A stretch of DNA of 64,000 bases, taken from an uncultured Gammaproteobacteria bacterium (GTDB lineage Bacteria > Patescibacteriota > Patescibacteriia > Magasanikbacterales > GWA2-37-8). This document shows, piece by piece, positions 1,059 through 64,000 of the stretch. The stretch spans positions 27,167-91,166 of the forward strand of contig CAZWKA010000005.1 of the NCBI GenBank assembly GCA_964634875.1, in the 5' to 3' direction. How positions within the stretch are numbered: position 1 is the stretch's first letter; each line of letters begins with the position of its first letter. The notes under the pieces were generated by a model that saw nothing but the letters and a program-made list of their open reading frames with translations, did no database searches and had not been told where the DNA came from. The position numbers were made by a program, and so were the translations under genes.

Positions 1059-2168
1059 ATGTCCAAAGATTATTACAAAATTCTCGGTATCGACAAAAAC
1101 GCTTCGACCGATGAAGTAAAGAAAGCGTTCAAAAAAGCCGCGATGCAGCATCACCCGGATAAACCGACCGGGAACGAGGCAAAGTTCAAGGAAGCCAATG
1201 AGGCCTATCAGATTTTGTCCGACAAAGAAAAGCGTGCCCGTTATGATCAGTTTGGTTCTGACTTTGAACAGCAGGGTGGTTTTGGTGGTGGCATGAGTTG
1301 GGAAGATTTGATGCGCGCTTCACGCGGCCAAGGTGGCCAGGGCGGCGGATTTGAATTTAATTTTGGCGGACAAGATTTTGGGGATATTTTTGGCGACCTG
1401 TTTGGTATGGGTGGTGGACGGAGTCGTGGCAGTGCTCGTCAGTCACGTGGCCGCGATATTCAGGTTGATGTCGAACTCGATTTCAAAGAAGCGGCGTTTG
1501 GCGTGGAGCGTGATGTGCGTTTGCGCAAGCAAGATACGTGTGACGTCTGTAAAGGAAATGGTGCTGAGCCGGGCACTAGCATGGAAAAGTGTGAAACATG
1601 TAAGGGTCAGGGGCAGGTGGTGCAAAACCAGCGCACGTTCTTGGGGAATATGCAGACAGTGGCGACTTGTCCGACGTGCCAAGGGCGCGGCGAACATTCG
1701 ACAAAGAAATGCAAGCATTGCGGTGGAGACGGTGTGCTGTCGAAGGAGTCGACAATTAAAGTAAAAATTCCAGCAGGTATTGATGAGGGGCAGTCGATTC
1801 GTATTACGGGTAAAGGCGAAGCCGCCCCGCATGGTGGCACGAGCGGTGACCTCTATGTGTTGACCCATGTTAAACCAAGCAAAGAATTCCATCGTGAGGA
1901 TTTTGATGTATATGTAGATAAAGAAATTTCGTATCCGCAAGCAGTGCTCGGCGACACGATCGAGGTGCCGACGCTTGAAGGAAGTGTAAAGATTTTGGTG
2001 CCCGAAGGAACCGAGTCTGGTCAGTTGATCCGTTTAAAAGGCAAGGGGATTACGCATCTTGGTAGCACGACTCGCGGAGACGAGTTTGTGCGGGTCAAAA
2101 TTCGGGTTCCAAAGAAAGTCAGTAAAACGGCTAAAAAGCTTCTGGAAGAACTCAAAACCGAAGTTTAA
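1059..2168 (+). CDS. dnaJ: molecular chaperone DnaJ
   Basis: N-terminal J-domain (DYYKILGI...HHPDK), a Gly/Phe-rich linker, and four CxxCxGxG zinc-finger repeats ([32 protein letters not shown]). Confidence 0.95.
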
Positions 2169-2197
2169 AATTGGCTATAATTAGCCAAAATAGTGCG

Positions 2198-2228
2198 AAA
2201 AGGCCTTGACAAAAGGCCTTTTTTGTGC
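2198..2228 (+). terminator. rho-independent terminator of dnaJ
   Basis: Stem AAAAGGCC / GGCCTTTT with loop ttgacaaaa, followed by a T-run. Confidence 0.6.
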
Positions 2229-2234
2229 TATACT
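2206..2234 (+). promoter_or_regulatory. consensus sigma-70-type promoter (TTGACA, 17 bp, TATACT) embedded in the dnaJ terminator and facing the GC-rich island
   Basis: TTGACA at 2206-2211, a 17-nt spacer, then TATACT at 2229-2234. The same -10 hexamer recurs upstream of several genes in this window. Confidence 0.5.
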
Positions 2235-2285
2235 ATTTTGTTCGTCAAACAGACGAATTTTTTGTTTATAAAGCTCTTTAATAAT

Positions 2286-2329
2286 TTCTTACGGTGGAAA
2301 CAGGGTATCCCTTGTTTCCACCGTAAGAA
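2286..2329. repeat. perfect 17-bp inverted repeat hairpin at the left edge of the GC-rich island
   Basis: ttcttacggtggaaaca ... tgtttccaccgtaagaa, with an inner GGG/CCC pairing. Lies 30 nt upstream of the GGAGGG RBS and the ATG at 2359. No T-run follows. Confidence 0.65.
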
Positions 2330-2358
2330 CCAAACCGTTCACTGGAGGGAATTTCGTC

Positions 2359-2910
2359 ATGAAGACTGAGTCTGTCCTCGAGAGTGCCCGCAACCTCGGC
2401 CACATCACGATCACGCTCGGCTTCGCCGCGTTCATCGCTGCGATGGTCGCGAGCGGGTGCGGCACAGAGCCGGTCGGACAGGGCGACGTCGAGGTCGCGA
2501 CCCCCGCGCCCGCGCCGGATCCGCGCTTCACAGCGCCGGGCAACCCCGATTCTCCGCCTTGCTTGGGCTGCGGTTACGCAGCCACGGCTGGCGAGAGCAA
2601 GTCTGTCGCGCCGCCTGCGTCCGTCACCGTTCCCAGCGGCTTCACGCTTCCGCTCGACCTCTCCGGCACGCCCCTCAAGGCCTACCCGGCCTACTCGGCG
2701 CTCTGCCGGGGTGGGGATGTGTCTATCCTCTCGGACTGCCGCAGCCAGGAGCGCGTCTGCACCGCTCCCGAGAACTCCAACGTGGCGGTCGGCTCGATCG
2801 ATCGTCTGTGGTGTTCCGACGGAACGCAGGTCCTCATCCTCATCTGCCCCCTGGACACGAGCGGGGACACGTTCACGGTTGGTACTGAGACCTTCGCTGG
2901 CTGCCGCTAG
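2359..2910 (+). CDS. GC-rich secreted lipoprotein (island gene 1), 183 aa
   Basis: RBS GGAGGG; signal peptide with lipobox (MVASGC); Cys-rich C-terminal half. G/C at most third codon positions, contrasting with flanking genes. The overlapping same-strand ORFs at 2384..2959 and 2457..2888 are GC artefacts. Confidence 0.6.
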   Translation: MKTESVLESARNLGHITITLGFAAFIAAMVASGCGTEPVGQGDVEVATPAPAPDPRFTAPGNPDSPPCLGCGYAATAGESKSVAPPASVTVPSGFTLPLDLSGTPLKAYPAYSALCRGGDVSILSDCRSQERVCTAPENSNVAVGSIDRLWCSDGTQVLILICPLDTSGDTFTVGTETFAGCR

Positions 2911-2946
2911 CCAGCCCCCCCCGAGTCTTCGGACACGGGAGCCCTA

Positions 2947-2971
2947 CGACCCGGATTAAAAACCCGGGTCG
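2947..2971 (+). terminator. GC hairpin after island gene 1
   Basis: cgacccgg attaaaaa ccgggtcg, immediately followed by the conserved AT-rich element. Confidence 0.4.
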
Positions 2972-2974
2972 CTC

Positions 2975-3010
2975 AAATAAATTTCTAAATTTTGTTTGGA
3001 AATTTTGAGA
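2975..3010. repeat. conserved AT-rich inter-gene element, copy 1 (AAATAAATTTCTAAATTTTGTTTGGAAATTTTGAGA)
   Basis: Near-identical to 4380..4414. Internal dyad AAATTTC / GAAATTT. Confidence 0.65.
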
Positions 3011-3119
3011 GTAAGTTCTTTACAACTTAAGGCTACTTACACTCCTGTGGTTAGAACAATGCTTAATGAGTCTTGTTTCAACCACGGGAGCAATCCCATT
3101 TCCTAGGGGGAAGAACACC

Positions 3120-4307
3120 ATGAATCAGACTTTTGCCTCTGCTTTCGCCATCGCCACCACTGTCCTCTTCGGCGCATGCGGCTCGTTGCCGCGGTGGGAG
3201 GATACAATCAAGGCGCCGGCCTTCCAGGCTGTGCGTGAGATCGTGGTCGCGAACGTCCAGCTGGACAGCGCCATTACTGGTACGGCCAACGGCCGTGTCG
3301 TGGTGGCCAAAGAGAAACTGTTCGACAAGACAGTGCTCCTCGGTGCACTCGAGAGCTATGACGTCGTGAGCGGCAGCAAAATCGCTGAGCGCATCCCGAC
3401 TGGTGACTGGCGCGAGACCTGGCACAGCGGCGCGCTCGTCGCTGGTGCGAAGGGTGAGGCTCTTATCGGCCTCGGCGGCGAGTTCCGGCAGATCAACAGC
3501 GATCTCGCGGACACGCAGCGCTTCGATCAGGCCTACACCTATGTGAATCCGGTCTGGACGCCCAGCGGCTGGCTCATCGGCGGGGCGGACAAGTTCGACG
3601 GTGGCGACTCGGTGAAGTACTACTTCAACGATCCGACTGGCGATTCGCCCCCGAGCTTCGCCTTCGACGGCTGTGGCTGGGTGCGGGGCATCGCGAAGCT
3701 GGGTCACACCACCTTCGCAGTTGTCTCGCGGCGCGATGGTAACGCCAAGAACTGGTTCGAGCTGCTCACCTTCACGAAGGGCGCACAGCACGTCTATCGG
3801 GCGCTCAAGACGGACACGGGACGAGTCGGAGGCTACTGCGGCGGTCTCCAGGGTCTGGAGCTTCTCGCTATCGAAGCGGATCGTGCTCGTGAAGAGGTTA
3901 TCGTCGTGTGGTCGTTCGATAAGGACGAGAACTACGAACTCCACGTTACGGCGTTCTCTGAGGACGGCCGGTTGCTGCGGGATCAGAAGCTTCTTTCCCG
4001 CTACGAGCGCGTGTATGCGGCCAAGATCTTCCGTGGGGGAGTCGCTGTCGTCGGGCTGAGCAAGCTCGGCGCTGGTGGCTTCACGCTCAAGCTGATCTCG
4101 ACCGACAGCACCATCAAGGAAGGCGAGGCAATCCCAAATAAGGATGTTGACTCGGTGAGTTCCTTCCGGATCGCCCAGGCTGACCCGAGTCACCTGGTGG
4201 TCGCCTACACCTCGCCGAGTCGGACGGCTGCCCAGGTTCGCTCCACGGTTCTCAAGGTCTACGACCTTGGACCGGGCCCGGGAGACGAGCCGCTCCACCT
4301 CGAGTAG
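3120..4307 (+). CDS. GC-rich secreted lipoprotein (island gene 2), ~395 aa
   Basis: RBS AGGGGG then ATG at 3120 (MNQTFASAFAIATTVLFGACGS; lipobox LFGAC). The track ORF starts further upstream at 3066. The antisense ORF 3078..4298 is a typical high-GC artefact. Confidence 0.6.
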   Translation: MNQTFASAFAIATTVLFGACGSLPRWEDTIKAPAFQAVREIVVANVQLDSAITGTANGRVVVAKEKLFDKTVLLGALESYDVVSGSKIAERIPTGDWRETWHSGALVAGAKGEALIGLGGEFRQINSDLADTQRFDQAYTYVNPVWTPSGWLIGGADKFDGGDSVKYYFNDPTGDSPPSFAFDGCGWVRGIAKLGHTTFAVVSRRDGNAKNWFELLTFTKGAQHVYRALKTDTGRVGGYCGGLQGLELLAIEADRAREEVIVVWSFDKDENYELHVTAFSEDGRLLRDQKLLSRYERVYAAKIFRGGVAVVGLSKLGAGGFTLKLISTDSTIKEGEAIPNKDVDSVSSFRIAQADPSHLVVAYTSPSRTAAQVRSTVLKVYDLGPGPGDEPLHLE

Positions 4308-4350
4308 CCTTCCCCCTCATCTCTTCCGCGCTTCGGCGCGCTCGAGACCA

Positions 4351-4375
4351 ACGCCCGCGATTCACTCGCGGGCGT
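4351..4375 (+). terminator. GC hairpin after island gene 2
   Basis: acgcccgcg attcact cgcgggcgt, followed by copy 2 of the AT-rich element. Confidence 0.4.
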
Positions 4376-4379
4376 CTTC

Positions 4380-4414
4380 AATTAAATTTCTAAATTTTAT
4401 TGGAAATTTTGAGA
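4380..4414. repeat. conserved AT-rich inter-gene element, copy 2 (AATTAAATTTCTAAATTTTATTGGAAATTTTGAGA)
   Basis: Roughly 31 of 35 positions match copy 1, with the same position relative to the preceding GC hairpin. Confidence 0.65.
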
Positions 4415-4428
4415 AGCATTATAACGCT

Positions 4429-4455
4429 AACACCTTTACAAAAGGTGTTTTTTGT
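4429..4455 (+). terminator. rho-independent terminator
   Basis: aacaccttt aca aaaggtgtt followed by TTTTTT. Confidence 0.5.
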
Positions 4456-4513
4456 TATCTACTACTTTAGTCTTTAAGTCTCTGCAACGCCCACTTGTCG
4501 GAGGAAATGCAAC

Positions 4514-5701
4514 ATGCATGTTTTTCGAATCATTGGTTGGTTACTGCCCGCGTGTCTTTCTGCGTGTGGCGAACCGGGTATGACCCCAGGTGCTGCTGAC
4601 CTGCCTCCCTCGGGCGATGAGCGTGGGTGTCAGTCCTTTGGTAATGAGGTTGTTGTCCGGGATGTGCCCCTCGGCGAGACGTATCGTATCGCTGCCTTGG
4701 CGAACAGCTACCTGGTCGCCTGGCACACGAATACCCGCGATGTTCCGAGGGAAGTTAACTTCCACCTGTTTGGTCTTGGCGGAGAGGCTGTCACCACGAA
4801 CCCAGTCACGATCCCGCATGGTGAGGTTGATCTCAATTTCGTGATCGCCGGCAAGGACGGGCGTTACTACGTCCAGACGGTCGAGTCGGTGGCCGGCCGG
4901 CCGTTGTATTGGCTGCATGCGTTATCGCCCGAAGACACTACCTCCATCGTTTCGGCACCGCTCACTGAGAACATGAATGTCTCGGGGATGGCTGTTAGTC
5001 CCTGGGGCCTCCTGGCTGTTTCTGGTAGTTCGACGGCGGAAGAGAGTAGCTACGCCGTTTCGACGGTGGATGAAAAAGCTACCCTGACTCATTTCGCTGA
5101 GATCCGTGAGGCGGGCACGACGTGTCCGGTCGTATCTGCGGTTGCCGCGAGCCATAATCAGCTTGCGATCGCTGCGGTGCGTGAAACGACGAGGGGTACG
5201 AGGAAGCTGAGCGTCATCATCCGTTCGGCAGACGGTTCGGTGAACGATGTTCTTATCGAGGAGCACCAGCGGGTAGCGCTCGAAGAGGCGTTCTACTGCG
5301 CGTCGTACGCTGTTTACATCAAGAAGCTCTTCGCCCTGCCCGACGGTTCGTTTGGTGTGTGGTGGTGGGACTATCGCGTCGCTGGCTACTACCTGACCGT
5401 TGTGTCGAACACTGGCGTTGCTGGTCCGGCGCGTCGAATCAAGCCGGTTCAGTTCCCGGGCATCTCTGATTTGGCTTGGGTGGAAGGTGATTTCGTTGCC
5501 AGCGTCTACCAGTACAACGGTCGGCCCGATGAAGTCGGTATTCTGCGTCTGCAGCTTGACCTGGAGGTTGAGACGAGCGACTACCTGAAGCTGGGCATCG
5601 ATAGTTGGGAGGCACCAAAGATCGCTTCCACAGGGCGACACTTGGCCGTCGTGCGCAATTCGCTTGAGTCACCCGCGGTCTACTTTCTCGCCTGCCGTTA
5701 G
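4514..5701 (+). CDS. GC-rich secreted lipoprotein (island gene 3), 395 aa
   Basis: RBS GGAGG; signal peptide with lipobox (LSACG); GC-rich codons; the antisense ORFs here are artefacts. Confidence 0.6.
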   Translation: MHVFRIIGWLLPACLSACGEPGMTPGAADLPPSGDERGCQSFGNEVVVRDVPLGETYRIAALANSYLVAWHTNTRDVPREVNFHLFGLGGEAVTTNPVTIPHGEVDLNFVIAGKDGRYYVQTVESVAGRPLYWLHALSPEDTTSIVSAPLTENMNVSGMAVSPWGLLAVSGSSTAEESSYAVSTVDEKATLTHFAEIREAGTTCPVVSAVAASHNQLAIAAVRETTRGTRKLSVIIRSADGSVNDVLIEEHQRVALEEAFYCASYAVYIKKLFALPDGSFGVWWWDYRVAGYYLTVVSNTGVAGPARRIKPVQFPGISDLAWVEGDFVASVYQYNGRPDEVGILRLQLDLEVETSDYLKLGIDSWEAPKIASTGRHLAVVRNSLESPAVYFLACR

Positions 5702-5769
5702 GCGATTTTGGCAATTTAGTGCCATCCCCAATCTATATTGGGCATGCGTGCGGACATGTTGCCCTCCGC

Positions 5770-5810
5770 TTTTCTCTTGAGCGCTTACGTATTAAGCTCT
5801 CAAGAGAAAA
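5770..5810 (+). promoter_or_regulatory. long hairpin between island gene 3 and the ECF sigma promoter
   Basis: ttttctcttga gcgcttacgtattaagc tcaagagaaaa forms an 11-bp perfect outer stem plus inner pairing. It may terminate the island transcript or act as an operator for the sigma gene. Confidence 0.4.
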
Positions 5811-5850
5811 ATTGTTTACCCTGATATTTTTTGGTAAACTACAGATTGTT

Positions 5851-6363
5851 ATGGCTTTTACTAAAAATGATTTTGAAAAGTTTTATAACGATCACTTTGA
5901 TAAAGTGTATCGTTTTATTTTCTTTCGGATTGGCAGCAACAAAGATGTGGCCGAGGATTTGGTATCCGAGATTTTTATGAAAGCGCTCAAAGCGTTCGAA
6001 ACGTATGACCCGAAGGTCAGCCAGTCAGCATGGATCATGACGATCGCAAAACATCATCTCCTTAATTACTGGAGGGATCGTAAAAATGCGGTGCCACTGC
6101 CCGGAAGCGAGATGTCCCAAGAAAATGGTGTGTTGGATAGTTTTTGGCTTAAAAGCGCTCTGTTACAGTTTGGTGTCCAAAAGGAGAAATGGCACGTAAC
6201 CGAACTTTTATTAAAATTAGAAACAAACGAGCGGGAAATTGTAACTTTTCACTACCTTTTGGGGTATAGTTATTTAGAGATTGCTGAACTGCGGGGTCAA
6301 AGCGAAGGGGCGGTAAAAGTTGCAGCCCACCGAGCGATTAAAAAAATGCGTGATTGGTTATGA
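5851..6363 (+). CDS. ECF-type RNA polymerase sigma factor
   Basis: Sigma-70 region 2 (YDPKVSQSAWIMTIAKHHLLNYWRDRKN) and region 4 HTH (EREIVTFHYLLGYSYLEIAELRGQSEGAVKVAAHRAIKKM). The ATG at 5851 follows a TTGTTT...TAAACT promoter. The track ORF start at 5719 is a GTG extension. Confidence 0.8.
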   Translation: MAFTKNDFEKFYNDHFDKVYRFIFFRIGSNKDVAEDLVSEIFMKALKAFETYDPKVSQSAWIMTIAKHHLLNYWRDRKNAVPLPGSEMSQENGVLDSFWLKSALLQFGVQKEKWHVTELLLKLETNEREIVTFHYLLGYSYLEIAELRGQSEGAVKVAAHRAIKKMRDWL

Positions 6364-7707: not shown

Positions 7708-9072
7708 TTAGTATTCCATCCGCCAGAGTCCTTCTTTTCCACTAACAGCTCCAGAAAAATAGAGGAGGCGGTTTTCGCTATCAGCCCCCAGCCCGGTGAG
7801 TTGGCTATTGCTCAAAATATCTTGAGTGACGAGGTAGTAGGGGAATAGGACGGAAATCTTGTTATCGGCACGCAGGGCGACAGTATTATACTCATCAATA
7901 AAAACCGCTTGCCGGAGTGCAATACCCGAGCGGTTGAGGAGGTATGGGTCACTGCCACCTAAAGATGACCATAATTCCCAGGGGTTCCACAGCAGCCACC
8001 AACCGCTGGCAGAAGCGGTAAAATTTTCGGTGGGCACAACAAAAGATCTTGTAGGATTAACGAGCAGCATGCGCGATCCTTGCTCTTCGCTGATAAGGAC
8101 GGTGTTATTCTGGATGAGGCGCAACCGGAGGTTGGTGCGTGTTGTTTCTTCAAGTGATTGGCTGGTAATGGTCGCGAAGGTGTTGATGAAGCCGAGTGTG
8201 TCGCGTTTGATCGTAATTTCGTTGGTGCTCGTAGTAAGATTCATTGTCCACAATTGTCCACCGTTAAAATACCAGTCAAGATACGTGTTGGTCGTGAGTG
8301 TGGTGGTCTCTTCAAGGTTGGTGTCGGCGGCGCGGATTTGGGCCGTGGTACTATAATACAGGGTATGGTCGTTTTCAGAGTCCCAGAGAAATTTGTTAAT
8401 CGGACTTTTTTCGAGTGCTGCAAGATCCCATTTTTTTTCGGGGTTGGCGGTTTTTACCACGATGAGTTGGGTATACGGCGCGAGGGTGGTGTGGATGCTG
8501 AAAAAAACATTATTTTTCGACCAACTTACTGCTGTAGAGGTCGTATAGCTAAGTCCGGTGAGGATAGTTTCTTCCTGGCTGAGTGTATTTTTTAGGACAA
8601 GATCTGGGGTAGTTTTTTTACTGTATATGAGGTAGTTTCCGTCGGGGCTGGTTGAAAGGAGTGTCGCAGCGTCTTCGGTAAGTAGTATCGGTTCGGCTTT
8701 TTTGATGAGTGTAACGTCTTTTATGTAAATAGTCTGTTTGCTTTTAACGGTGATTTCTTGTTGCCAGTCGTAATAGCCGCTTCGCTCAATGCGCAGGTTA
8801 TATGATGAGGGGGCGACATTTTTGAGGCGGACAGGGATTTTTTCGTTAATTTCTTCGCCATTTAAAAATACCGTAGCGTCTTGAGGGAGCACGTCGATGC
8901 TGAGTGCGCCAATTTCTTTGATGAGTCCGCTCTGCCAATCGTAGCGGTAACCAACGGTGTAGAGAACCAAAAGCGGAGTAATGATTAAAAAAAGACCTAA
9001 AAACAGCGCCAGCAATAATTGGCGCCGACGTTTTGTTAGGGTGCTTCCGGGGTATTCCATACAGGAACTCAA
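7708..9072 (-). CDS. membrane-anchored PEGA-domain protein with a large beta-rich C-terminal region
   Basis: N-terminal TM helix, then a PEGA-like unit (DVLPQDATVFLNGEEINEKIPVRLKNVAPSSYNLRIERSGYYDWQQEI), then ~330 aa rich in Ser/Thr/Trp/Tyr. Confidence 0.55.
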   Translation of the reverse strand: MSSCMEYPGSTLTKRRRQLLLALFLGLFLIITPLLVLYTVGYRYDWQSGLIKEIGALSIDVLPQDATVFLNGEEINEKIPVRLKNVAPSSYNLRIERSGYYDWQQEITVKSKQTIYIKDVTLIKKAEPILLTEDAATLLSTSPDGNYLIYSKKTTPDLVLKNTLSQEETILTGLSYTTSTAVSWSKNNVFFSIHTTLAPYTQLIVVKTANPEKKWDLAALEKSPINKFLWDSENDHTLYYSTTAQIRAADTNLEETTTLTTNTYLDWYFNGGQLWTMNLTTSTNEITIKRDTLGFINTFATITSQSLEETTRTNLRLRLIQNNTVLISEEQGSRMLLVNPTRSFVVPTENFTASASGWWLLWNPWELWSSLGGSDPYLLNRSGIALRQAVFIDEYNTVALRADNKISVLFPYYLVTQDILSNSQLTGLGADSENRLLYFSGAVSGKEGLWRMEY

Positions 9073-9208
9073 AAGTCTGGGAGCCTAAAGTTAAAAGTCG
9101 CACGTTGCCTTATAAAATCGGTGCCTGGGGGACTTTTGAGCTTTTGACTTTATAGTCTATTAAAGGTATAGTTAATCATAAGCTAAAAAGACTTTTCAGT
9201 CAAAACCT

Positions 9209-10516
9209 ATGCCTTATTTAGTAATACAGGGCGGTAAAAAATTACACGGCGAAATCGTTAACCAGTCTAACAAGAACTCGGCAATTTCGATTTTGTGTGC
9301 GACTCTTATGGTGCGCGGCAAGACGACTTTGACCGATGTCCCCGAAATTCAAGAGGTGGAGCGGATGGTAGAGCTCCTGACCAGTATTGGGGTGGTTGTT
9401 ACTAGGCCCAAATCCCACACGATCGTGGTCGATGCGAGCCGCGACCTCACCATGGAAACGATTGACCGTAAGATCTGCGAAAAGGTTCGAGCGTCGCTGT
9501 TGTTATGCGGGGCGTTAGCGGCGCGTGAGAAAAGTTATAAATTATACAAATCAGGTGGTTGTCGGCTTGGCGAACGCACGGTCAGGCCGCATTGGTATGC
9601 TCTTAAAAAATTGGGCGTTTCAGTTATTTCTCGCGACGCGTATTATGAAGTCGAGCGCACAAGGCCGCTCGCAGCTGCACGTATTGTTATGTACGAGTCG
9701 GGGGATGCCGCTACGGAAAATACGATCATGGCCGCCGTCCTTGCACCGGGCACAACAGTGATCACAATGGCATCGGCCAATTATATGGTGCAGGATCTGT
9801 GTTATTTTTTGGTGAAGGCCGGGGCAAAAATTAAGGGTATCGGATCGACCACACTCACGATTACCGGTGTCAAGGAATTGCGGCCGGTCAAGGAATATCC
9901 GATCATGCCAGATCCTATTGTGGCCATGACTTTTTTATCAGCGGCAATTGCAACCGGATCGACACTGACGGTCAAAAATTGTCCACTGGAGTTTTTGGAA
10001 TTAGAGCTGTGCAAACTTGAGATAATGGGGCAAAAGTTTAAGGTTGATCACGAACGGACATCTAAGAACGGACATTTTATCATTGTTGACGTTACCGTTG
10101 AACCGAGTAAGCTTACAGCGTTACCCGATAAAATTTACGGGCGTCCATTCCCGGGTTTAAACATCGATAACCTACCGTTGTTCGTACCGATTCTGACCCA
10201 AGCAAGGGGTCGTACGCTCGTTCATGACTGGGCGTATGAGAATCGGGCGATCTACAGTTTGGAGCTTCAGAAGCTGGGTGCGCAAATTACGCTCTTAGAC
10301 CCACACCGGATGTGGGTAGAAGGTCCGGTTAAATTATTGCCGAACGAAGTGATATGTCCGCCCGCCCTTCGCCCTGCAGTGAATGTGCTCATTTGTATGT
10401 TAGCTGCCAAAGGGAAATCTATTTTGCGCAACACTGCTATGATCGACCGGGGCTATGAAAATTTGTATGAAGTATTGAATAAAGCAGGAGCGGATATTAC
10501 TCTTGTGAAAGAATAG
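9209..10516 (+). CDS. murA: UDP-N-acetylglucosamine 1-carboxyvinyltransferase
   Basis: Colinear with MurA: KNSAISILCATLM matches KNAALPIL; the catalytic-Cys loop KSGGCRLGERTVRPH is present; C-terminal IDRGYENLYEVLNKAGADI. Confidence 0.9.
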   Translation: MPYLVIQGGKKLHGEIVNQSNKNSAISILCATLMVRGKTTLTDVPEIQEVERMVELLTSIGVVVTRPKSHTIVVDASRDLTMETIDRKICEKVRASLLLCGALAAREKSYKLYKSGGCRLGERTVRPHWYALKKLGVSVISRDAYYEVERTRPLAAARIVMYESGDAATENTIMAAVLAPGTTVITMASANYMVQDLCYFLVKAGAKIKGIGSTTLTITGVKELRPVKEYPIMPDPIVAMTFLSAAIATGSTLTVKNCPLEFLELELCKLEIMGQKFKVDHERTSKNGHFIIVDVTVEPSKLTALPDKIYGRPFPGLNIDNLPLFVPILTQARGRTLVHDWAYENRAIYSLELQKLGAQITLLDPHRMWVEGPVKLLPNEVICPPALRPAVNVLICMLAAKGKSILRNTAMIDRGYENLYEVLNKAGADITLVKE

Positions 10517-13466: not shown

Positions 13467-13931
13467 ATGAAAGTCATTCTTCTTGAGAACGTCAAAGGAT
13501 TAGGTAAAATGGACGACATTAAAGATGTTACTGATGGGTATGCCCGTAATTTTCTGTTCCCTAACCATTTAGCGGTACAGGCATCGACCCAGGCTGTTAG
13601 TGTTGTTGCGGGAAGAAAGAAAAAAGCCGCTGGCGAAGCCGAAAGTGAGCTGCAACAGACCCAACATTTGGCTGAGGCGGTCGATGGGTTTGAACTCGAT
13701 GTGCGGGCTAAGGCCAATGAAAACGACCATTTGTATGCTGCTTTAACCCCTGCCAAAATTGCTGAGTTACTTCAGGGTCAAGGGTTCAAAGTTGTTAAAG
13801 CCCATATCGTGACCGAACCGATCAAAACGACAGGTACCCACCGCGTTAAAATTAAATTGAAACACGGACTTGAAGCCGAGGTCAAAATCATTGTCTCCGC
13901 TGTACAACATAAAGAAGAAGGAACAAAGTAA
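13467..13931 (+). CDS. rplI: 50S ribosomal protein L9
   Basis: [32 protein letters not shown] matches the L9 N-domain consensus. Confidence 0.9.
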
Positions 13932-13978
13932 TACTTTGTTCCTTCTTCTTTGTTTTATGCTTTTTTTAATACGTTCGT

Positions 13979-40672: not shown

Positions 40673-40689
40673 AAATTTTAAAAACTCCT

Positions 40690-40726
40690 CTGACCTGGGT
40701 CAGAGGAGTTTTTTTATCGTGAGTTT
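40690..40726. terminator. bidirectional rho-independent terminator
   Basis: AAAACTCCTCTGACC tg GGTCAGAGGAGTTTTTTT between rplU and the convergent recR. Confidence 0.65.
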
Positions 40727-40729
40727 TTA

Positions 40730-41329
40730 TTACCTTTCAGTTCTCCCTTTAAGCGCATTGCTGAGTGTAATTTCATCTGCGTATTGAAGGTCGCTACCCA
40801 TGGGGAGTCCGCGAGCAAGACGGGTAATGCGGATAGTTGGTTTTAGTTTTTTAATAGCCCGCTCGAGGTACAGGGTGGTTGTTTCACCGGGTAGATTTGG
40901 ATTGAGCGCAAAAATTATTTCTGCAGGAGGTTCGTTTTGAATGCGTTTGAGAAGCTCGGCTATCTTTGTCCTCCCCAAACTCGTATCGTCGCTGGAATCA
41001 AGCAGGCTGCGTAGGATATGATAAACGCCTTTGTATTCGCTGGTATTCTCAATCGCTTGCAAGTCTTGCGGATCCGTAACAACGAGAATTGTTGAGTGGT
41101 CGCGTTTTACATTACTACAAATGCTACAGGGGCTAGTATCGCTAAAATCAAAACATATTTCACAGCTTTTGACGTTTTCGATTAATTCTTTGAGGGCGAG
41201 CATGAGTTCGGTCACATCCTTTTTGCCGGATTTGAGCCAATAAAAAACATACCGTTCGGCAGTGTGCTGGCCGACTGACGGTAATTTTTTAAGTTCGGTA
41301 ATCAGGTTGTTAATGGAAGGGGAGTACAT
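40730..41329 (-). CDS. recR: recombination protein RecR
   Basis: HhH, a C4 zinc finger (CEICFDFSDTSPCSIC) and a Toprim domain; 199 aa. Confidence 0.9.
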   Translation of the reverse strand: MYSPSINNLITELKKLPSVGQHTAERYVFYWLKSGKKDVTELMLALKELIENVKSCEICFDFSDTSPCSICSNVKRDHSTILVVTDPQDLQAIENTSEYKGVYHILRSLLDSSDDTSLGRTKIAELLKRIQNEPPAEIIFALNPNLPGETTTLYLERAIKKLKPTIRITRLARGLPMGSDLQYADEITLSNALKGRTER

Positions 41330-41371: not shown

Positions 41372-41680
41372 TTACTTTCCCATCCCTGGCAAATCAAAGC
41401 CGCCCATTTCTTGCATCTTGGTTGCGATAGTACGTTGCATTTTTTTGAGGGCATCAGCGTGGGCGTCTTTGATGCCGTTCTGAAGTTTTTCTTTTTGGGC
41501 TGGGTTCAAGAGTTCATCGTCGATCGCGAGAGCAGTGATTTCAAGGTTTCCATTGAGTGAGAGGACTACCTTGTCGCCTGCGGCGCTGGTGGTAATGCTT
41601 TCACCACCCAATGCTTCCTGAAGTTTTTTGCCTTGGTCGCGGAGGTCTTTGAATTCTTTGAGCTTGGAGAACATCGACAT
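41372..41680 (-). CDS. ybaB: nucleoid-associated protein YbaB/EbfC
   Basis: ~100-aa YbaB family protein in the conserved ybaB-recR pairing. Confidence 0.9.
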   Translation of the reverse strand: MSMFSKLKEFKDLRDQGKKLQEALGGESITTSAAGDKVVLSLNGNLEITALAIDDELLNPAQKEKLQNGIKDAHADALKKMQRTIATKMQEMGGFDLPGMGK

Positions 41681-41735
41681 AGTGTATTTAAATTAAGCTT
41701 AAGTTAAAGGATGTTTTTGTTTATTATGTTTTTTT

Positions 41736-41790
41736 CACATAACACGTATCACGTAACACAATCAATATGTTACGTGATACGTGTTATGTG
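41736..41790. repeat. perfect 23-bp inverted repeat, CACATAACACGTATCACGTAACA (9-nt loop) TGTTACGTGATACGTGTTATGTG
   Basis: Checked base by base. Sits between the dnaB stop and the ybaB start. Contains tandem ACGT cores. Confidence 0.7.
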
Positions 41791-41800
41791 CTATGTGTTT

Positions 41801-43249
41801 TTAAAATTCAGGATCGCCACCATCCTGCTTGCGGAAAGCGGACTTTGGTTTAAGTTCCTGGACCATGTTGGATTGTGGTACAAAATTGGTATCAAGGTTC
41901 CGGAAAGAAGCCATTGCATCGACAAAAACCATTTTTACTATCCCAGTCGGGCCATTGCGGTGTTTCGCGATATGGATTTCAGCCAAATTGCGTTCGTCGG
42001 GCGGAATTTCTTCGGGTCGGTAGTTGCGGTCGGCAGATTTGCGGTAAATAAACATGACGATGTCGGCGTCCTGTTCGATAGACCCGGATTCACGGAGGTG
42101 GGATAGCTTAGGGATAGCGGGTTTGCTTTGTTCGACGGTACGCGAAAGCTGGGAGAGGGCGATAACAGGCACATTCAATTCGCGGGCGATACTCTTGAGG
42201 CCGCGGGTAATTTCTGCGACTTCTTGAACACGGTTTTCAATATTACCTCGTGATTGCATGAGTTGTAAGTAGTCGATGACAATGAGTCCGAGGCCATGTT
42301 CGGCTTGGAGACGGCGCGCCTTGGTTCTGATTTGCATGATGTTAACATCAGCTGAGTCGTCAATGAAAATAGGCGCTTCAGAGAGAGTACCGATGGCGTG
42401 ACCGATGCGCGGAAAGTCGTCGTCTTCTGGCCTGTCGGACAAGCGTCCCGTGCGTAGTTTCCACAGGTCAATATTCGCTTCGGAACAAAGCATTTTATCT
42501 ACCATCTGTTCCTTGCTCATTTCGAGTGAAAATAGGCCGACTGGTACTTTTTGGCGCGTGCCAATATACCGGACGATATCAAGCGCCAGCGAAGATTTTC
42601 CCACACTCGGACGGGCGGCGATAATAATAAGGTCGGATTTTTGAAGGCCAGCCATGAGATTATCAAGTCCGGTAAAACCAGTCGGTACACCGCGTAATTG
42701 TCCTTTGTTTTTATGCAATTCGTCAATACGGTCAAAAGCGTCGGCGAGAACGCCGCGGATAGGAGTAAAGGCTTGTTTAAAATAAATCTGAGAAACACCA
42801 AACAGATGCTGCTGCGCCTGATCAAGGATTTGTTCGATATCTTCTTGATCTTCCTGGAAGGACAGGCGGGTAATCTCTTGTGAAGCCGCCAAGAGTCGCC
42901 GTCTGGTCGCTTTGCGGTGGATAATATGGGCGTAGTGTACGATGTTCGAAGCGGTCGGCACGGCGTTGGTAAGCGCCGCTAAGTAGCTACGCCCCCCGAC
43001 GCGTTCAAGTTCGCCTTTTTCTTCGAGTCGGTTGCTGAGCGTCAAGAGGTCGAGCGGCTCATTTTTATCGTAGAGTTCAAGGATGGATTCAAAAATCCGG
43101 CTGTGCGCATCTTTATAAAAATCCTCCGCCCGTACAATATCAGCAATTTTAAGCATTGCTTCTTTGTCAATCAAAATAGAGCCGAGGAGCGACATTTCAG
43201 CTTCCAGGCTCTGTGGTGGTATGCGGTCAACATTTTCACTCGATGACAT
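41801..43249 (-). CDS. dnaB: replicative DNA helicase DnaB
   Basis: N-terminal DnaB domain; Walker A RPSVGKSS; RecA-like C-terminal domain; 482 aa. Confidence 0.95.
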   Translation of the reverse strand: MSSSENVDRIPPQSLEAEMSLLGSILIDKEAMLKIADIVRAEDFYKDAHSRIFESILELYDKNEPLDLLTLSNRLEEKGELERVGGRSYLAALTNAVPTASNIVHYAHIIHRKATRRRLLAASQEITRLSFQEDQEDIEQILDQAQQHLFGVSQIYFKQAFTPIRGVLADAFDRIDELHKNKGQLRGVPTGFTGLDNLMAGLQKSDLIIIAARPSVGKSSLALDIVRYIGTRQKVPVGLFSLEMSKEQMVDKMLCSEANIDLWKLRTGRLSDRPEDDDFPRIGHAIGTLSEAPIFIDDSADVNIMQIRTKARRLQAEHGLGLIVIDYLQLMQSRGNIENRVQEVAEITRGLKSIARELNVPVIALSQLSRTVEQSKPAIPKLSHLRESGSIEQDADIVMFIYRKSADRNYRPEEIPPDERNLAEIHIAKHRNGPTGIVKMVFVDAMASFRNLDTNFVPQSNMVQELKPKSAFRKQDGGDPEF

Positions 43250-60190: not shown

Positions 60191-60210
60191 ATTTTATTTG
60201 TATAGCAGCG

Positions 60211-60290
60211 TAGGCAGAGTAAGTACTAAGCAGAGTAAGTAATTTTTCGCAACTTAATCTGCCTACTCTGCGTAATCTGCCTAGTACTAT
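60211..60290. repeat. repeat/dyad cluster: direct repeat GCAGAGTAAGTA twice (16-bp register) and TAATCTGCCT twice (18-bp register) in inverted orientation
   Basis: Checked by eye. agtactaagcag (60222-60233) is a one-mismatch reverse complement of ctgcctagtact (60279-60290). Lies between apbE and the oxidoreductase gene. Confidence 0.45.
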
Positions 60291-61868: not shown

Positions 61869-62005
61869 AAGGCTGCTCTCGCTCAATGTTATAGCGTGTA
61901 AAACACTGAGCGAGGTCGAGCAGTCTTGGGAGTTTTTTGCAGCGAGAGGGAGTGGCCAACTTGGTTTTCGGCCGCTCCCTCGTTGTATGAGGGGGTGAAA
62001 TTTGT

Positions 62006-63112
62006 CTAGGCTGGGGGTCCGAGCTCAGCCGTCTCCACGCGCGAGCTGAGGAACGCGCCCAGGTGTCGCCGGAGCGTTGTGATACCCGGCTTGATCAGCT
62101 CGGCATAGTCAACGAGGGCGCTGCCGATCATCGCATACTCCTTGGTCATTCCCGAGAGCTGATAGGTGGAACGCCCAAGCTTGAGCGGGTACTCGATCTG
62201 CTTCTTGTTGGTCGAGTGCCGAGCGACGTTCGGCTTGAAGCCTAGGTTGTTTCTCAAAAAGCCGAGCCCGCGGCTCGGGCGCTGCGAGATGTCATGCTCG
62301 TTGTACAGCGAGAGCTTGGCCGAGGTGAGCTCGCCATCTTTCAGAACCGTCTCAATGGCGTAGCGCTCTGTATAGACGATCTCCGGCAGAAGCGAAGGGT
62401 TGTTCATGAGCTCGTGGAACTCGGGCGGCAGAACAGCACGAACGCAATTCTCATAGAGATCGAGGTCCAGCAGCTCAGGACCGTCGAGCGGCTCTTCACC
62501 CCGCCAGATCGGCCGACCGAGCGGGATGCCGGTCAGGCGCTTGATCGTCTTCAGGATCGACTTGCGCTCCTCGTCGAGCAGGTGGCTCACGTTCGCCGTG
62601 AAGAAGGTGCGACCACGCTCTACCCTTCGCTTGAGCGCACCCCACTGCTGGATGATCCAGAGCGCGCCGTGGTCCGGCGAGATCGGGCGACCGTCATCGA
62701 AGGTCCAGCTGCAGGTTACGTAGTTTTCGGACTTTCTCTGCTTTAGGCTGAACCCGACGCGAAAACTCTTCGGGCCGATACCTACCTGATTCATGCCGCT
62801 GTAGCTCAGTTCCACCGGACCGTAGGTGACCGTGTCGCGCTGCCCCGAGAACGCGGAGTTTCCGACCCCCTCTCGGATAGTGTAAGGAGCGAGGTGATCA
62901 CCCGGCCGATACTCAAGGAGCCAGCTGGTCGGCAGGAGTGCGCTCGAAGGCTCCACCCACACGTGATCGCCCATGTTGTGGATCATCAGGTGCCGAGAGC
63001 CTGTCTCGTGGTGGTCCTCCGGCCGCAGCTGCCACTCACCCCGTATACGTAGGAGCGGCGTTGGGCTCGGGAACCGGACCTGGTTTGCGAAAAAATAGTT
63101 CTGACCATTCAT
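62006..63112 (-). CDS. GC-rich orphan hypothetical protein, ~368 aa
   Basis: Visibly GC-rich ORF with GC at third codon positions in an AT-richer genome. RBS GAGGAAAAG upstream of the ATG at 63112. The track ORF extends to 63211. The plus-strand ORFs inside it are artefacts. Confidence 0.55.
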   Translation of the reverse strand: MNGQNYFFANQVRFPSPTPLLRIRGEWQLRPEDHHETGSRHLMIHNMGDHVWVEPSSALLPTSWLLEYRPGDHLAPYTIREGVGNSAFSGQRDTVTYGPVELSYSGMNQVGIGPKSFRVGFSLKQRKSENYVTCSWTFDDGRPISPDHGALWIIQQWGALKRRVERGRTFFTANVSHLLDEERKSILKTIKRLTGIPLGRPIWRGEEPLDGPELLDLDLYENCVRAVLPPEFHELMNNPSLLPEIVYTERYAIETVLKDGELTSAKLSLYNEHDISQRPSRGLGFLRNNLGFKPNVARHSTNKKQIEYPLKLGRSTYQLSGMTKEYAMIGSALVDYAELIKPGITTLRRHLGAFLSSRVETAELGPPA

Positions 63113-63291
63113 GAACTTTTCCTCTGCTCTCCCTTTCCATTCAAGGCTCCGGTCAGGGCACTGCCTGACATGCGGAGGAGTCTTGGTAACTCTCAGGAGT
63201 AGCTCGCGCATAACAAATTTATTGTGCTCGAGCTCATCCGGAAAACTCTTAAGAGTATACTTTTTAGATCATTTTGTCAATATACTGGGGT

Positions 63292-63324
63292 AAAAAACAC
63301 GACGTCGATTGACGTCGTGTTTTA
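63292..63324. terminator. bidirectional rho-independent terminator
   Basis: AAAAAACACGACGTC gatt GACGTCGTGTTTT, a perfect 13-bp stem, downstream of gpmA on the minus strand. Confidence 0.65.
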
Positions 63325-63341
63325 GACTTAGACCATGCGCA

Positions 63342-63947
63342 TCAAAGAATTTTTTTAATTGGTTTTTGATTTTTGTCATTGAAATAATAGACCCACGGAA
63401 TTCCCGTTGGAATCTCAAGCGTAATTATTTCTTCGGGCGTCAGTCCTTCTAATTTCATGACAAGTGCACGCAGACTATTATGGTGAGCAGTAACTAAAAT
63501 ATTTTTTCCTTGCGCTAGCTCTACTGTTATTTTTTCTTCAAAGTGTGTGTGGACGCGAGTAGCAGTATCGGCCAGGCTTTCACCTTCGGGCGGGCGTGTG
63601 TGATAGCTTCTGCGCCATAATTTAACTTGCTCCTCGCCGTGCAGGGCAATAGTCTCAGCATGGGTTTTGCCCTGAAGCGCTCCGTAATGGCGTTCGTTGA
63701 GTGCTCTGTATGATTGTAGGGGTAAATGACTTTTATTGCTCGATTCCAAGGCGATTTTTGCTGTTTCTATGGCGCGAGTCAGTAGGGAAGTGTGCACGAG
63801 TGAAATATCAAAATCAGCTAACTTTTCGCCGGCCCGGCGAGCCTGGAGTTCGCCTTCCGGAGAGAGGGGGATATCGGTTTGGCCGGTAAAGCGACCCTCG
63901 GCGTTCCAAAGGGTTTTACCATGACGTAGGAGGATGAGAGTAGACAT
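63342..63947 (-). CDS. gpmA: histidine-phosphatase-family phosphoglycerate mutase
   Basis: LILLRHGKTLWNAEGRFTGQTDIPLSPEGE contains the catalytic RHG motif; 201 aa. Confidence 0.8.
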   Translation of the reverse strand: MSTLILLRHGKTLWNAEGRFTGQTDIPLSPEGELQARRAGEKLADFDISLVHTSLLTRAIETAKIALESSNKSHLPLQSYRALNERHYGALQGKTHAETIALHGEEQVKLWRRSYHTRPPEGESLADTATRVHTHFEEKITVELAQGKNILVTAHHNSLRALVMKLEGLTPEEIITLEIPTGIPWVYYFNDKNQKPIKKIL

Positions 63948-64000
63948 AGAAAGTTGTTAAAGTATTCAATACAGTGTACCACGGGTTAAAAATAAAAACA

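Follow-up and report, generated by a model that had tools for sequence, protein, structure and literature searches.

Intergenic repeats with a seven-nucleotide unit have been reported from cyanobacteria, Xanthomonas and Beggiatoaceae for decades without a mechanism. Here we describe a 55-bp palindrome built of such units. It occupies positions 41736-41790 of a 64-kb stretch of DNA, in the following called the window (64,000 nucleotides of contig CAZWKA010000005.1), and lies between the genes dnaB and ybaB of a bacterium of the candidate phyla radiation (CPR). A first-pass annotation had proposed that the palindrome is an operator of ybaB-recR, a cruciform-forming site or an element similar to repetitive extragenic palindromes (REPs). 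Our comparisons suggest a different view, namely that it is very probably a non-conserved hairpin insert. For hairpins of the heptamer kind, both the phylum and the unit (CACRTAN) are new.

The closest described relatives are the heptamer arrays of Xanthomonas and Nostoc. [quoted passage not shown] The palindrome of the window shares with these pairs, and with the GGGGAYT pairs of Nostoc, the convergent arrays of 7-nt units forming a stem-loop, the location between co-oriented ORFs at no more than about 50 bp from the upstream stop codon, the variation of length and sequence between close relatives, and the lack of an explained function (PMC4692102). It differs from them in having A/T-rich units with an ACGT core instead of G-rich ones, thus no G-quadruplex, in its CPR host, and in being a perfect palindrome with arms of 23 nt. 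An association of the Xanthomonas and Nostoc repeats with mobile elements was not found in that study (PMC4692102), whereas the relatives described here bracket genes of the PF05635 family. The tandem heptanucleotide repeats described from the cyanobacterium Calothrix PCC 7601 also belong to the closest known systems.

Degenerate heptamers, TDNGATT or NNTGAGT, make up the P6b stem of the group I intron in the tRNA-Leu(UAA) gene of Nostoc (PMC4476775). The length of this stem changes by whole units and by stem-loop insertions, and the repeat class can be replaced at the same site in related strains (PMC4476775), all of which resembles what we observed. The AAGATTA units found in three of our loci (L001, L124 and L170) are similar to the TDNGATT class. 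Unlike the hairpin of the window, P6b is part of a self-splicing intron, not of a spacer, and carries no cargo ORFs. Direct repeats of the heptamer TAACTGA, for which a role in translation was proposed, occur in intergenic DNA of Beggiatoaceae, Cyanobacteria and Bacteroidetes (PMC4679880). They too show indels in steps of 7 nt, their spacers are shorter and repeat-less in relatives that share the gene neighbourhood, and no spreading mechanism is known for them; unlike the arrays of the window, they are almost always direct (one inverted case was reported) and stand just upstream of start codons (PMC4679880).

Another kind of similarity links the palindrome to the intervening sequences (IVSs) of rRNA. 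In IVSs that carry an S23p/PF05635 ORF, for example those of Coxiella burnetii and Leptospira, the terminal repeats pair around the ORF to a stem of some 25-30 bp, 28 bp in Coxiella. RNase III cuts this stem and can so remove it from the transcript, which is why the element is tolerated (PMC4990558). The rRNA insertions of CPR bacteria contain GIY-YIG and 23S_rRNA_IVP ORFs, and many of them are short and ORF-less (10.1101/2024.02.27.582315). The element of the window has a terminal stem of comparable length (23-25 bp, as against the 28 bp of Coxiella), and has in common with IVSs the existence of short versions without ORF and a sporadic, selfish-looking distribution; locus L124 has a 435-nt version at the dnaB-ybaB site. 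The differences are that the window element has a 9-nt loop and no ORF, hence it could only be an ORF-less derivative, and that it is located in an mRNA spacer, not in rRNA. To our knowledge, no tandem-unit structure of IVS stems has been described.

REPs and the bacterial interspersed mosaic elements (BIMEs) and REP doublets (REPINs), like the MITEs (miniature inverted-repeat transposable elements), are also short extragenic palindromes which are variably present, often co-transcribed, and can act as mRNA stabilisers. Of the three options in the first-pass annotation the REP-like element came closest to the evidence. However, the palindrome, a member of a class of hairpins with tandem-unit arms, is probably not a REP: there were no near-identical copies dispersed in the window, no multi-copy family of such copies was present in our data, and the window genes scanned included neither a transposase nor a REP-associated tyrosine transposase (RAYT). 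In addition, the arms of the palindrome are internally tandem-repetitive, unlike REPs and the terminal repeats of typical MITEs.

The palindrome and its repeat units

The first-pass annotation described a perfect inverted repeat with 23-nt arms and 9 nt between them, and this description was correct, the arms are 100% complementary. If the sequence is folded as RNA, two more pairs can form inside the 9-nt loop, leaving a loop of 5 nt. What had not been noticed is the 7-nt periodicity of the arms. Both are tandem arrays of the unit CACRTAN: Tandem Repeats Finder (TRF) detected 3.4 copies of CACGTAA at 41736-41759 and a second array at 41768-41799, and 13 of 16 positions that can be compared at a lag of 7 nt inside the arm are, as read off the sequence, identical. 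On the minus strand the order of the units is CACATAG CACATAA CACGTAT CACGTAA ... TTACGTG ATACGTG TTATGTG. The first of these heptamers is present on the dnaB side only, beyond the perfect repeat, and gives the inverted repeat its alternative registers I2 and I3; such a one-sided extra unit indicates gain or loss of units by slippage. The variable positions of the units are mirrored exactly in the two arms, as if a recent copying event had produced one arm from its partner.

The palindrome is real and far beyond chance. The arm had no match in the window other than its two places, even with three mismatches allowed, and none of 100 shuffles produced one. Folding of the spacer as RNA of the coding (minus) strand gave -40.2 kcal/mol (z -8.5). 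As single-stranded DNA it gave -25.6 kcal/mol (z -8.2). None of 200 shuffles folded as well, either as RNA or as DNA. The palindrome may form a cruciform. A search of Rfam yielded no match at the gathering threshold. At a relaxed E-value some hairpin models of miRNA precursors appeared, but these were generic and far under their own thresholds, and were treated as meaningless.

Comparison with related loci

We compared the spacer with those of 82 related loci in which dnaB is directly followed by ybaB, taken from genome representatives and metagenomes; the alignment, which includes the window's own spacer, has 83 members. Both the order of the genes dnaB, ybaB and recR and the convergent rplU are conserved among the related loci. 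The spacer lengths have a bimodal distribution. Fifty of the 83 spacers are shorter than 60 nt, and 48 of these are 3-55 nt long, AT-rich and unstructured. Spacers of 60-260 nt (29 of 83) mostly contain a strong hairpin, and spacers longer than 400 nt are found in five cases, of which at least two have identifiable cargo ORFs. Overall, about a third of the relatives have a strong hairpin between dnaB and ybaB, and in many of these the arms consist of other units of 7-9 nt. The sequence of the window palindrome occurred in none of the related loci, it was either absent or replaced by unrelated sequence.

A look-up of the exact YbaB sequence of the window had no match, and the best YbaB match was P0001 (88%). 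The closest relatives for which DNA is available are L163/L164. Their YbaB is 84% identical to that of the window, and the neighbouring genes are the same out to a Glycos_transf_4 gene. The dnaB-ybaB spacer of L163/L164 is 48 nt long and has no palindrome. Only the 28 nt beside the ybaB start can be aligned with the window, and the 92 nt that follow the dnaB stop codon in the window correspond to 16 nt in L163/L164. The segment 41709-41800 is an insertion or expansion relative to L163/L164. L163/L164 have an empty site in this sense. Empty sites in relatives, and a target-site duplication, would be expected if the element were a MITE; the flanks AAAAACACATA and AAAAAAACATA match at 10 of 11 positions, but they overlap unit-like sequence.

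Two further features were seen in the spacers of this gene cluster. L166/L167, whose YbaB is 78% identical to that of the window, contain a gene for a 394-aa protein without Pfam match between dnaB and ybaB (8795-9979), and their ybaB-recR spacer of 195 nt is strongly structured (-69.7 kcal/mol). In many related loci AT-rich direct repeats of period 7 (AAAAATT, AATTAAA, TTTATAA; 3-4.6 copies) stand directly before the ybaB start, in the last 20-40 nt before the ATG, where there is no obvious Shine-Dalgarno sequence (examples are L084 2475-2495, L104 356-387, L133 328-358 and L102 2459-2483). These recall the start-proximal TAACTGA repeats of Beggiatoaceae.

Families of tandem-unit hairpins

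The hairpins found between dnaB and ybaB fall in three groups: tandem-unit hairpins, hairpins of the type GTCATTCC...GGAATGAC, and GC-rich hairpins. In the first group each arm is an array of units of 7-9 nt, and different lineages have different units. The window has CACRTAN at this site, L001 has AAGATTAN (AAGATTA type), L002 and L107 have AAAGGCTTN, L116 and L122 have AACNAAC, L138 has TGAATWA and L149 has AGTGANN. Most tandem-unit hairpins are bulged and were missed by a gapless scan for inverted repeats (at most 2 mismatches), therefore detection was based on TRF. Tandem arrays with a period of 6-10 and at least 2.8 copies reached a density of 5.5/kb in the dnaB-ybaB spacers and 6.0/kb in the spacers after ybaB, as compared to 1.1/kb in other intergenic DNA of the same loci and 0.8/kb in the intergenic DNA of the window.

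The palindrome has the features of this group. It contains at least three units of about 7 nt per arm, and its arrays are convergent and able to form a stem-loop. It lies between co-oriented ORFs, with the first heptamer 3 nt and the perfect repeat 10 nt past the dnaB stop codon, that is, well within 50 bp, and its presence, unit number and unit sequence vary among relatives with conserved gene order.

Hairpins of the same construction are not confined to this spacer. The window itself contains two more (Table 1). The hairpin at 60210-60287 is homologous to an element which in L163 (2808-2895) and L164 occupies a different locus, the ybaB-recR spacer; the two are by eye about 85% identical, and one stretch of 29 nt differs at a single position. 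The other, at 9085-9160, separates two divergent genes, one with a PEGA domain and one of the EPSP-synthase family (murA-like). In L168 (YbaB 79% identical) the ybaB-recR spacer contains ACGT-core arrays (GACGTGA AACGTGT AACGTAG ...) and inverted GTTCTAC GTTTTAC ... arrays. Within the 1.06 Mb of related DNA there was no ACGT-heptamer array apart from this pair. The unit family AAAGGCTT occurs at three sites in the distant genomes L002 and L107, once upstream of dnaB and twice in dnaB-ybaB spacers. The presence of sister copies at different loci argues that these families moved or were copied between loci, and are not fixed regulatory sites.

Some of the arrays outside the dnaB-ybaB spacer deserve a description of their own. 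The array pair upstream of dnaB in L002 (3651-3973) consists of inverted 9-mers of the AAAGGCTT type in 5 and 4.8 copies, the same type as in the dnaB-ybaB hairpin of this genome, and encloses about 240 nt with no evident ORF. The metagenome-assembled genome L040 (Chloroflexia) has heptamer-unit inverted repeats on both sides of dnaB (3841-3961 and 5325-5401), with GAGGACT x4 / CCTCAGT x4 upstream of the gene and GAGTAAC-type x4 / inverted x4 right after its stop codon; the tandem-unit hairpin architecture is therefore not confined to CPR bacteria.

Association with PF05635 genes

In locus L124 (559-995) the dnaB-ybaB spacer of 435 nt contains a 29-bp inverted repeat of the AAGATTA type that brackets an ORF of 123 aa, and the product of this ORF matches PF05635 (23S_rRNA_IVP, a family of four-helix-bundle proteins; E = 7e-27). 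A hairpin of AAGATTA units without the gene is found at the same site in L001, the YbaB proteins of L001 and L124 being 83% identical. PF05635 genes are also located between ybaB and recR, in L002 (5842-6300), L123 (2038-2543) and L144 (2790-3240). These are flanked by inverted tandem arrays, TAGTTCN x6 / GAACTNN x4 in L002 and CTAAGTTNN in L123. In the PF05635 homologues that we fetched from other contexts (among L170-L182), the gene is found between DHH and clpP, between rpe and a Pyr_redox gene (thioredoxin-reductase-like oxidoreductase), and, in the deltaproteobacterial context, between a histidine kinase and a sigma54 response regulator. All fetched homologues are co-oriented with their neighbours, and on their flanks are inverted arrays with a unit of 8 nt (AAGATTNN or GAGAATTA), beginning at the stop codon upstream. 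In several lineages PF05635 genes are surrounded by members of the AAGATTA family.

As a more general measure, and in view of differences in GC content, complementarity of the 70-nt flanks was expressed as shuffle z-scores; z was below -4 in four of seven independent PF05635 cassettes and in 0.9% of the control small ORFs. In the remaining cassettes the arrays are further off or AT-rich. The papers that we searched make no mention of PF05635 genes being consistently bracketed by arrays of this kind.

The second group of dnaB-ybaB hairpins shows a similar relationship with a gene of another family. In the dnaB-ybaB spacer of L123 (1291-1735) a GIY-YIG gene of 99 aa is bracketed by inverted repeats of the GTCATTCC...GGAATGAC type, and hairpins of this type occur without a gene in the spacers of L094, L095, L109, L112, L141, L151 and L165. 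In L177 a hairpin of the same type (1590-1670) is nested inside a PF05635 cassette. The rRNA genes of CPR bacteria have the same set of inserts, namely GIY-YIG and 23S_rRNA_IVP ORFs and numerous short ones without ORF (10.1101/2024.02.27.582315).

Proposed nature of the palindrome

Our explanation, which we think rather probable when taken as a whole, is that the palindrome is an ORF-less foldback insert of the tandem-unit hairpin class, which is co-transcribed with its neighbours and may act as an RNase III or mRNA-stability hairpin. The components of this explanation deserve different degrees of confidence. That we are dealing with a non-conserved hairpin insert with tandem-unit arms, a member of the tandem-unit class, can be said with considerable confidence. 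We also find it reasonably likely that the element is the cargo-less form of the architecture that brackets PF05635 genes in related genomes. The step involving RNase III or mRNA stability is more tentative, it was proposed by analogy.

The element could have arisen or spread in either of two ways: units slipped and one arm served as the template of its partner, or an element that had formed before was inserted. The palindrome would be transcribed along with dnaB-ybaB-recR. We infer co-transcription because the dnaB-ybaB spacers of most relatives cannot accommodate a promoter, and because PF05635 genes are always co-oriented with their host genes, as if they depended on host transcription. In the transcript the arms would form a perfect duplex of 23-25 bp, which, if the analogy with the IVSs of rRNA holds, could be a substrate of RNase III and/or a barrier to 3' exonucleases. 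Cleavage, or the barrier effect, would give the dnaB segment of the mRNA a fate independent of that of the ybaB-recR segment. Such an effect on expression would be a by-product and would not reflect a conserved regulatory design.

Several observations weigh against this explanation. The arm was absent from the 1.06 Mb of related loci, neither the arm nor the spacer was present in plasmid and phage collections (blastn of the spacer), and no second or cargo-bearing copy with CACRTAN units was found in the data searched. What links the palindrome to the PF05635 cassettes is thus their common architecture and position, and not a homology of sequence. The flanks AAAAACACATA and AAAAAAACATA may be a target-site duplication or may just be native sequence resembling the units. 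With no second copy, with ACGTAACA at the corresponding place of L163, and with its unit-like flanks (AACATAA/ACACATA), it is possible that the CACRTAN copy is of local origin. Among 29 related hairpins, folding was more favourable for the sense strand in 14 and for the antisense strand in 15, and there was no G-U bias, thus nothing favours selection at the RNA level over a palindrome in DNA. Finally, no RNase III gene was found among the window genes scanned.

An origin from a phage or plasmid was considered and rejected: the 16-mer arm matches in the viral contigs L161 and L162 were single, non-palindromic, and occurred by chance.

A broader interpretation is that the tandem-unit hairpins are the ORF-less form of a widespread, undescribed cassette, which consists of a PF05635 gene within inverted arrays of 7-9-nt units. 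Such a cassette would insert between co-oriented genes, in the direction of these genes and right behind a stop codon, and possibly into rRNA helices, it would ride on host transcription, and would be tolerated because RNase III would cut the stem out of the transcript. We regard this as speculative and, on present data, doubtful. If true, it would mean that mRNAs have 'intervening sequences' in CPR bacteria and Deltaproteobacteria, possibly also in Chloroflexi and Cyanobacteria. For the old question of the intergenic heptamer repeats, the bracketing of PF05635 genes, the cargo-containing and empty versions at a shared site and the dispersed copies provide a lead, namely that a small selfish cassette may have such repeats as its ends. 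The same lead is of interest for what the PF05635 family does, and for the tolerance of CPR bacteria to inserts in rRNA and mRNA.

Alternative explanations

It is conceivable, but in our opinion unlikely, that the palindrome is a local mutational product that was generated by polymerase slippage in steps of 7 nt and quasi-palindrome correction, and has neither mobility nor any relation to PF05635 genes. The exact mirroring of the arms, including the variable positions, is what arm-to-arm copying is expected to produce, the arm is single-copy in all data searched, and the unit-like sequences in L163 and in the flanks of the window, mentioned above, could have been the starting material. Moreover, heptamer simple sequence repeats are over-represented in bacteria, and slippage was proposed as the cause (PMC4692102). 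What this explanation does not accommodate are the sister elements at different loci (60.2 kb of the window and the ybaB-recR spacer of L163), the AAAGGCTT family with its three sites in distant genomes, and the occurrence of the AAGATTA family around PF05635 genes in several lineages. Slippage alone also leaves the inverted arrangement unexplained.

We consider it improbable that the palindrome is a selected RNA element, i.e. a dnaB terminator or attenuator without U-tract, or a 3'-end stabiliser, which sets the ratio of DnaB to YbaB/RecR. Stabilisation of 3' ends is a REP-like function seen in malE-malF. The very stable RNA hairpin 10 nt past the dnaB stop codon would suit such a role, and the strong hairpins of unrelated sequence that about a third of the relatives have at the same place could be the result of convergent selection. 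The heptamer arrays of other phyla are likewise less than 50 bp from stop codons and transcribed (PMC4692102). However, two thirds of the relatives, including the closest ones, have no hairpin at all, the hairpins of the related loci show no sense-strand bias in stability or G-U pairs, and those at the same site include the obviously selfish GIY-YIG and PF05635 cassettes as well as ORF-less forms. The first-pass annotation stated that the palindrome is not a simple dnaB terminator, and with this we agree: on the minus strand the hairpin is directly followed by A7 (AAAAAAACATAA) and not by a T-run. It was not called in the terminator scan either, whereas canonical terminators elsewhere were; the other terminators of this genome are the usual hairpins of A-run, stem and T-run.

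The ybaB-recR operator of the first-pass annotation, in which a transcription factor, or YbaB/EbfC in autoregulation, would bind the ACGT-core repeats and control the ybaB-recR promoter, is in our view very improbable. Heptads arranged in direct and inverted arrays are the DNA sites of ribbon-helix-helix regulators such as omega, and the heptads of the palindrome, read as RTAWCAC, resemble WWATCAC, with four direct and then three inverted copies, but the two arrays are separated by a gap of 9 nt. An operator would also be consistent with the overlap of the palindrome with a weak -35/-10 match (GTGATA-N18-CATAAT), with the tandem arrays enriched on either side of ybaB, and with the GTAAC/GTTAC of the inner units, sequences in agreement with the GTnAC site that is known for Borrelia EbfC (PMC2665219), a protein that helps to control its own dnaX-ebfC operon (PMC9879097). 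We weighed an omega/ParG-type heptad operator as well as an EbfC GTnAC site, and adopted neither. With 91 occurrences of GTWAC in the window one mirrored pair is unremarkable, GTnAC is not conserved in the spacers of the relatives, and the YbaB proteins of E. coli and H. influenzae have no GTnAC preference (PMC2720974). The window genes scanned contained no ribbon-helix-helix gene, and no other regulator gene was found nearby.

The remaining arguments against an operator come from the comparison of genomes. The palindrome is missing in the nearest relative L163/L164 in spite of the same gene order, an outcome which the first-pass annotation had itself named as refuting its proposal, the site is not conserved in sequence in any related locus, and the units that are found there in different lineages are wholly different. 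A search of the window for further members of a regulon, using the 23-mer arm, the 13-mer CACGTAWCACGTA and hexamer and heptamer half-sites, had no match outside the palindrome, and no further CACGTAW arrays were found in the window. Similar hairpins are located far from ybaB, at 9.1 kb and 60.2 kb of the window, to the left and right of dnaB in L040, and beside the genes clpP, rpe and those of the histidine kinase/response regulator pair. The promoter itself, expected by the first-pass annotation at this place, is questionable, most relatives having spacers of 3-55 nt that are too short to hold a dedicated ybaB promoter; such a promoter is not conserved in the operon. For the palindrome we suggest the annotation of a variable insert (repeat or hairpin) and not that of a dedicated ybaB-recR operator.

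Features of the locus and of the window

The coordinates are collected in Table 1. The Pfam matches agree with the first-pass annotation in that the flanking genes, dnaB, ybaB and recR, are all on the minus strand. The distance between the palindrome and the ybaB ATG is 55 nt. The transcription unit ends with a canonical bidirectional terminator (40680-40713), which follows recR and is common to recR and the convergent rplU. Sigma-70-like matches such as the one listed are frequent in this region (13 in 3 kb).

Table 1. Positions of the palindrome, its neighbours and the other tandem-unit hairpins in the window
Feature	Position	Strand	Remarks
ybaB-proximal arm, CACATAACACGTATCACGTAACA	41736-41758	+	reads CACATAA CACGTAT CACGTAA CA; three tandem heptamers
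Loop/spacer, CAATCAATA	41759-41767	+	9 nt
dnaB-proximal arm, TGTTACGTGATACGTGTTATGTG	41768-41790		TG TTACGTG ATACGTG TTATGTG; 100% complementary to 41736-41758
Fourth heptamer	41791-41797		CTATGTG on plus, CACATAG on minus strand; dnaB side only, beyond the perfect repeat
Window-specific part of the spacer	41709-41800	-	10 nt after the dnaB stop, palindrome and A-rich 27 nt
Ancestral ybaB-proximal spacer, TTTAACTTA...ACACT before ATG	41681-41708	-	common to L163/L164
Weak sigma-70-like match, GTGATA-N18-CATAAT	41723-41752	-	9/12; -35 inside the ybaB-proximal arm
dnaB (replicative helicase)	41801-43249	-	upstream gene; Pfam
ybaB/ebfC (nucleoid-associated DNA-binding protein)	41372-41680	-	downstream gene; Pfam
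recR	40730-41329	-	last gene of the dnaB-ybaB-recR unit; Pfam
Tandem-unit hairpin, GTAGGCAGAGTAAGTACTAAGCAGAGTAAGTAA ... ACTTAATCTGCCTACTCTGCGTAATCTGCCTAGTAC	60210-60287		GCAGAGTAA units; between apbE and NAD-binding oxidoreductase gene
Tandem-unit hairpin, CTAAAGTTAAAAGTC ... GGGACTTTTGAGCTTTTGACTTTATAGTCTAT	9085-9160		AAAGTYN / GACTTTT units

The gene content of the window is that of chromosomal housekeeping DNA (dnaJ, murA-like, rplI, pyrG, lepA, murJ, mraZ/mraW, dnaG, rpoD). DnaB and YbaB group with CPR/Patescibacteria, near Magasanikbacteria and Uhrbacteria, and the best species-level match of DnaB is 75% identical. A PF05635 gene was not found anywhere in the window by tblastn or with the hidden Markov model. 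GC skew is positive and monotonic over the whole window, which ruled out a replication origin or terminus.

Some other structures of the window were recorded in passing. Its longest inverted repeat (13906-13956; 25 nt, 92%) overlaps the stop codon of rplI and is followed by T-runs and then by pyrG; it is an ordinary, although unusually long, terminator. A near-consensus extended sigma-70 promoter, TTGACA-N17-TGcTATACT, overlaps the terminator hairpin of dnaJ at 2206-2234. Downstream of it, at 2286-2329, there is a 20-nt inverted repeat of 95% (TTCTTACGGTGGAAACAGGG / CCTTGTTTCCACCGTAAGAA) without T-run, which is located in the leader of an ORF (2359/2384-2959) with no Pfam match. The segment 2000-6000 contains ORFs without Pfam match; among these are ORFs of the two strands that overlap each other fully (3066-4307). 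The G+C content is 0.54-0.58 at 2000-6000 and at 62000-64000, and about 0.45-0.47 elsewhere in the window, and this may be foreign DNA.

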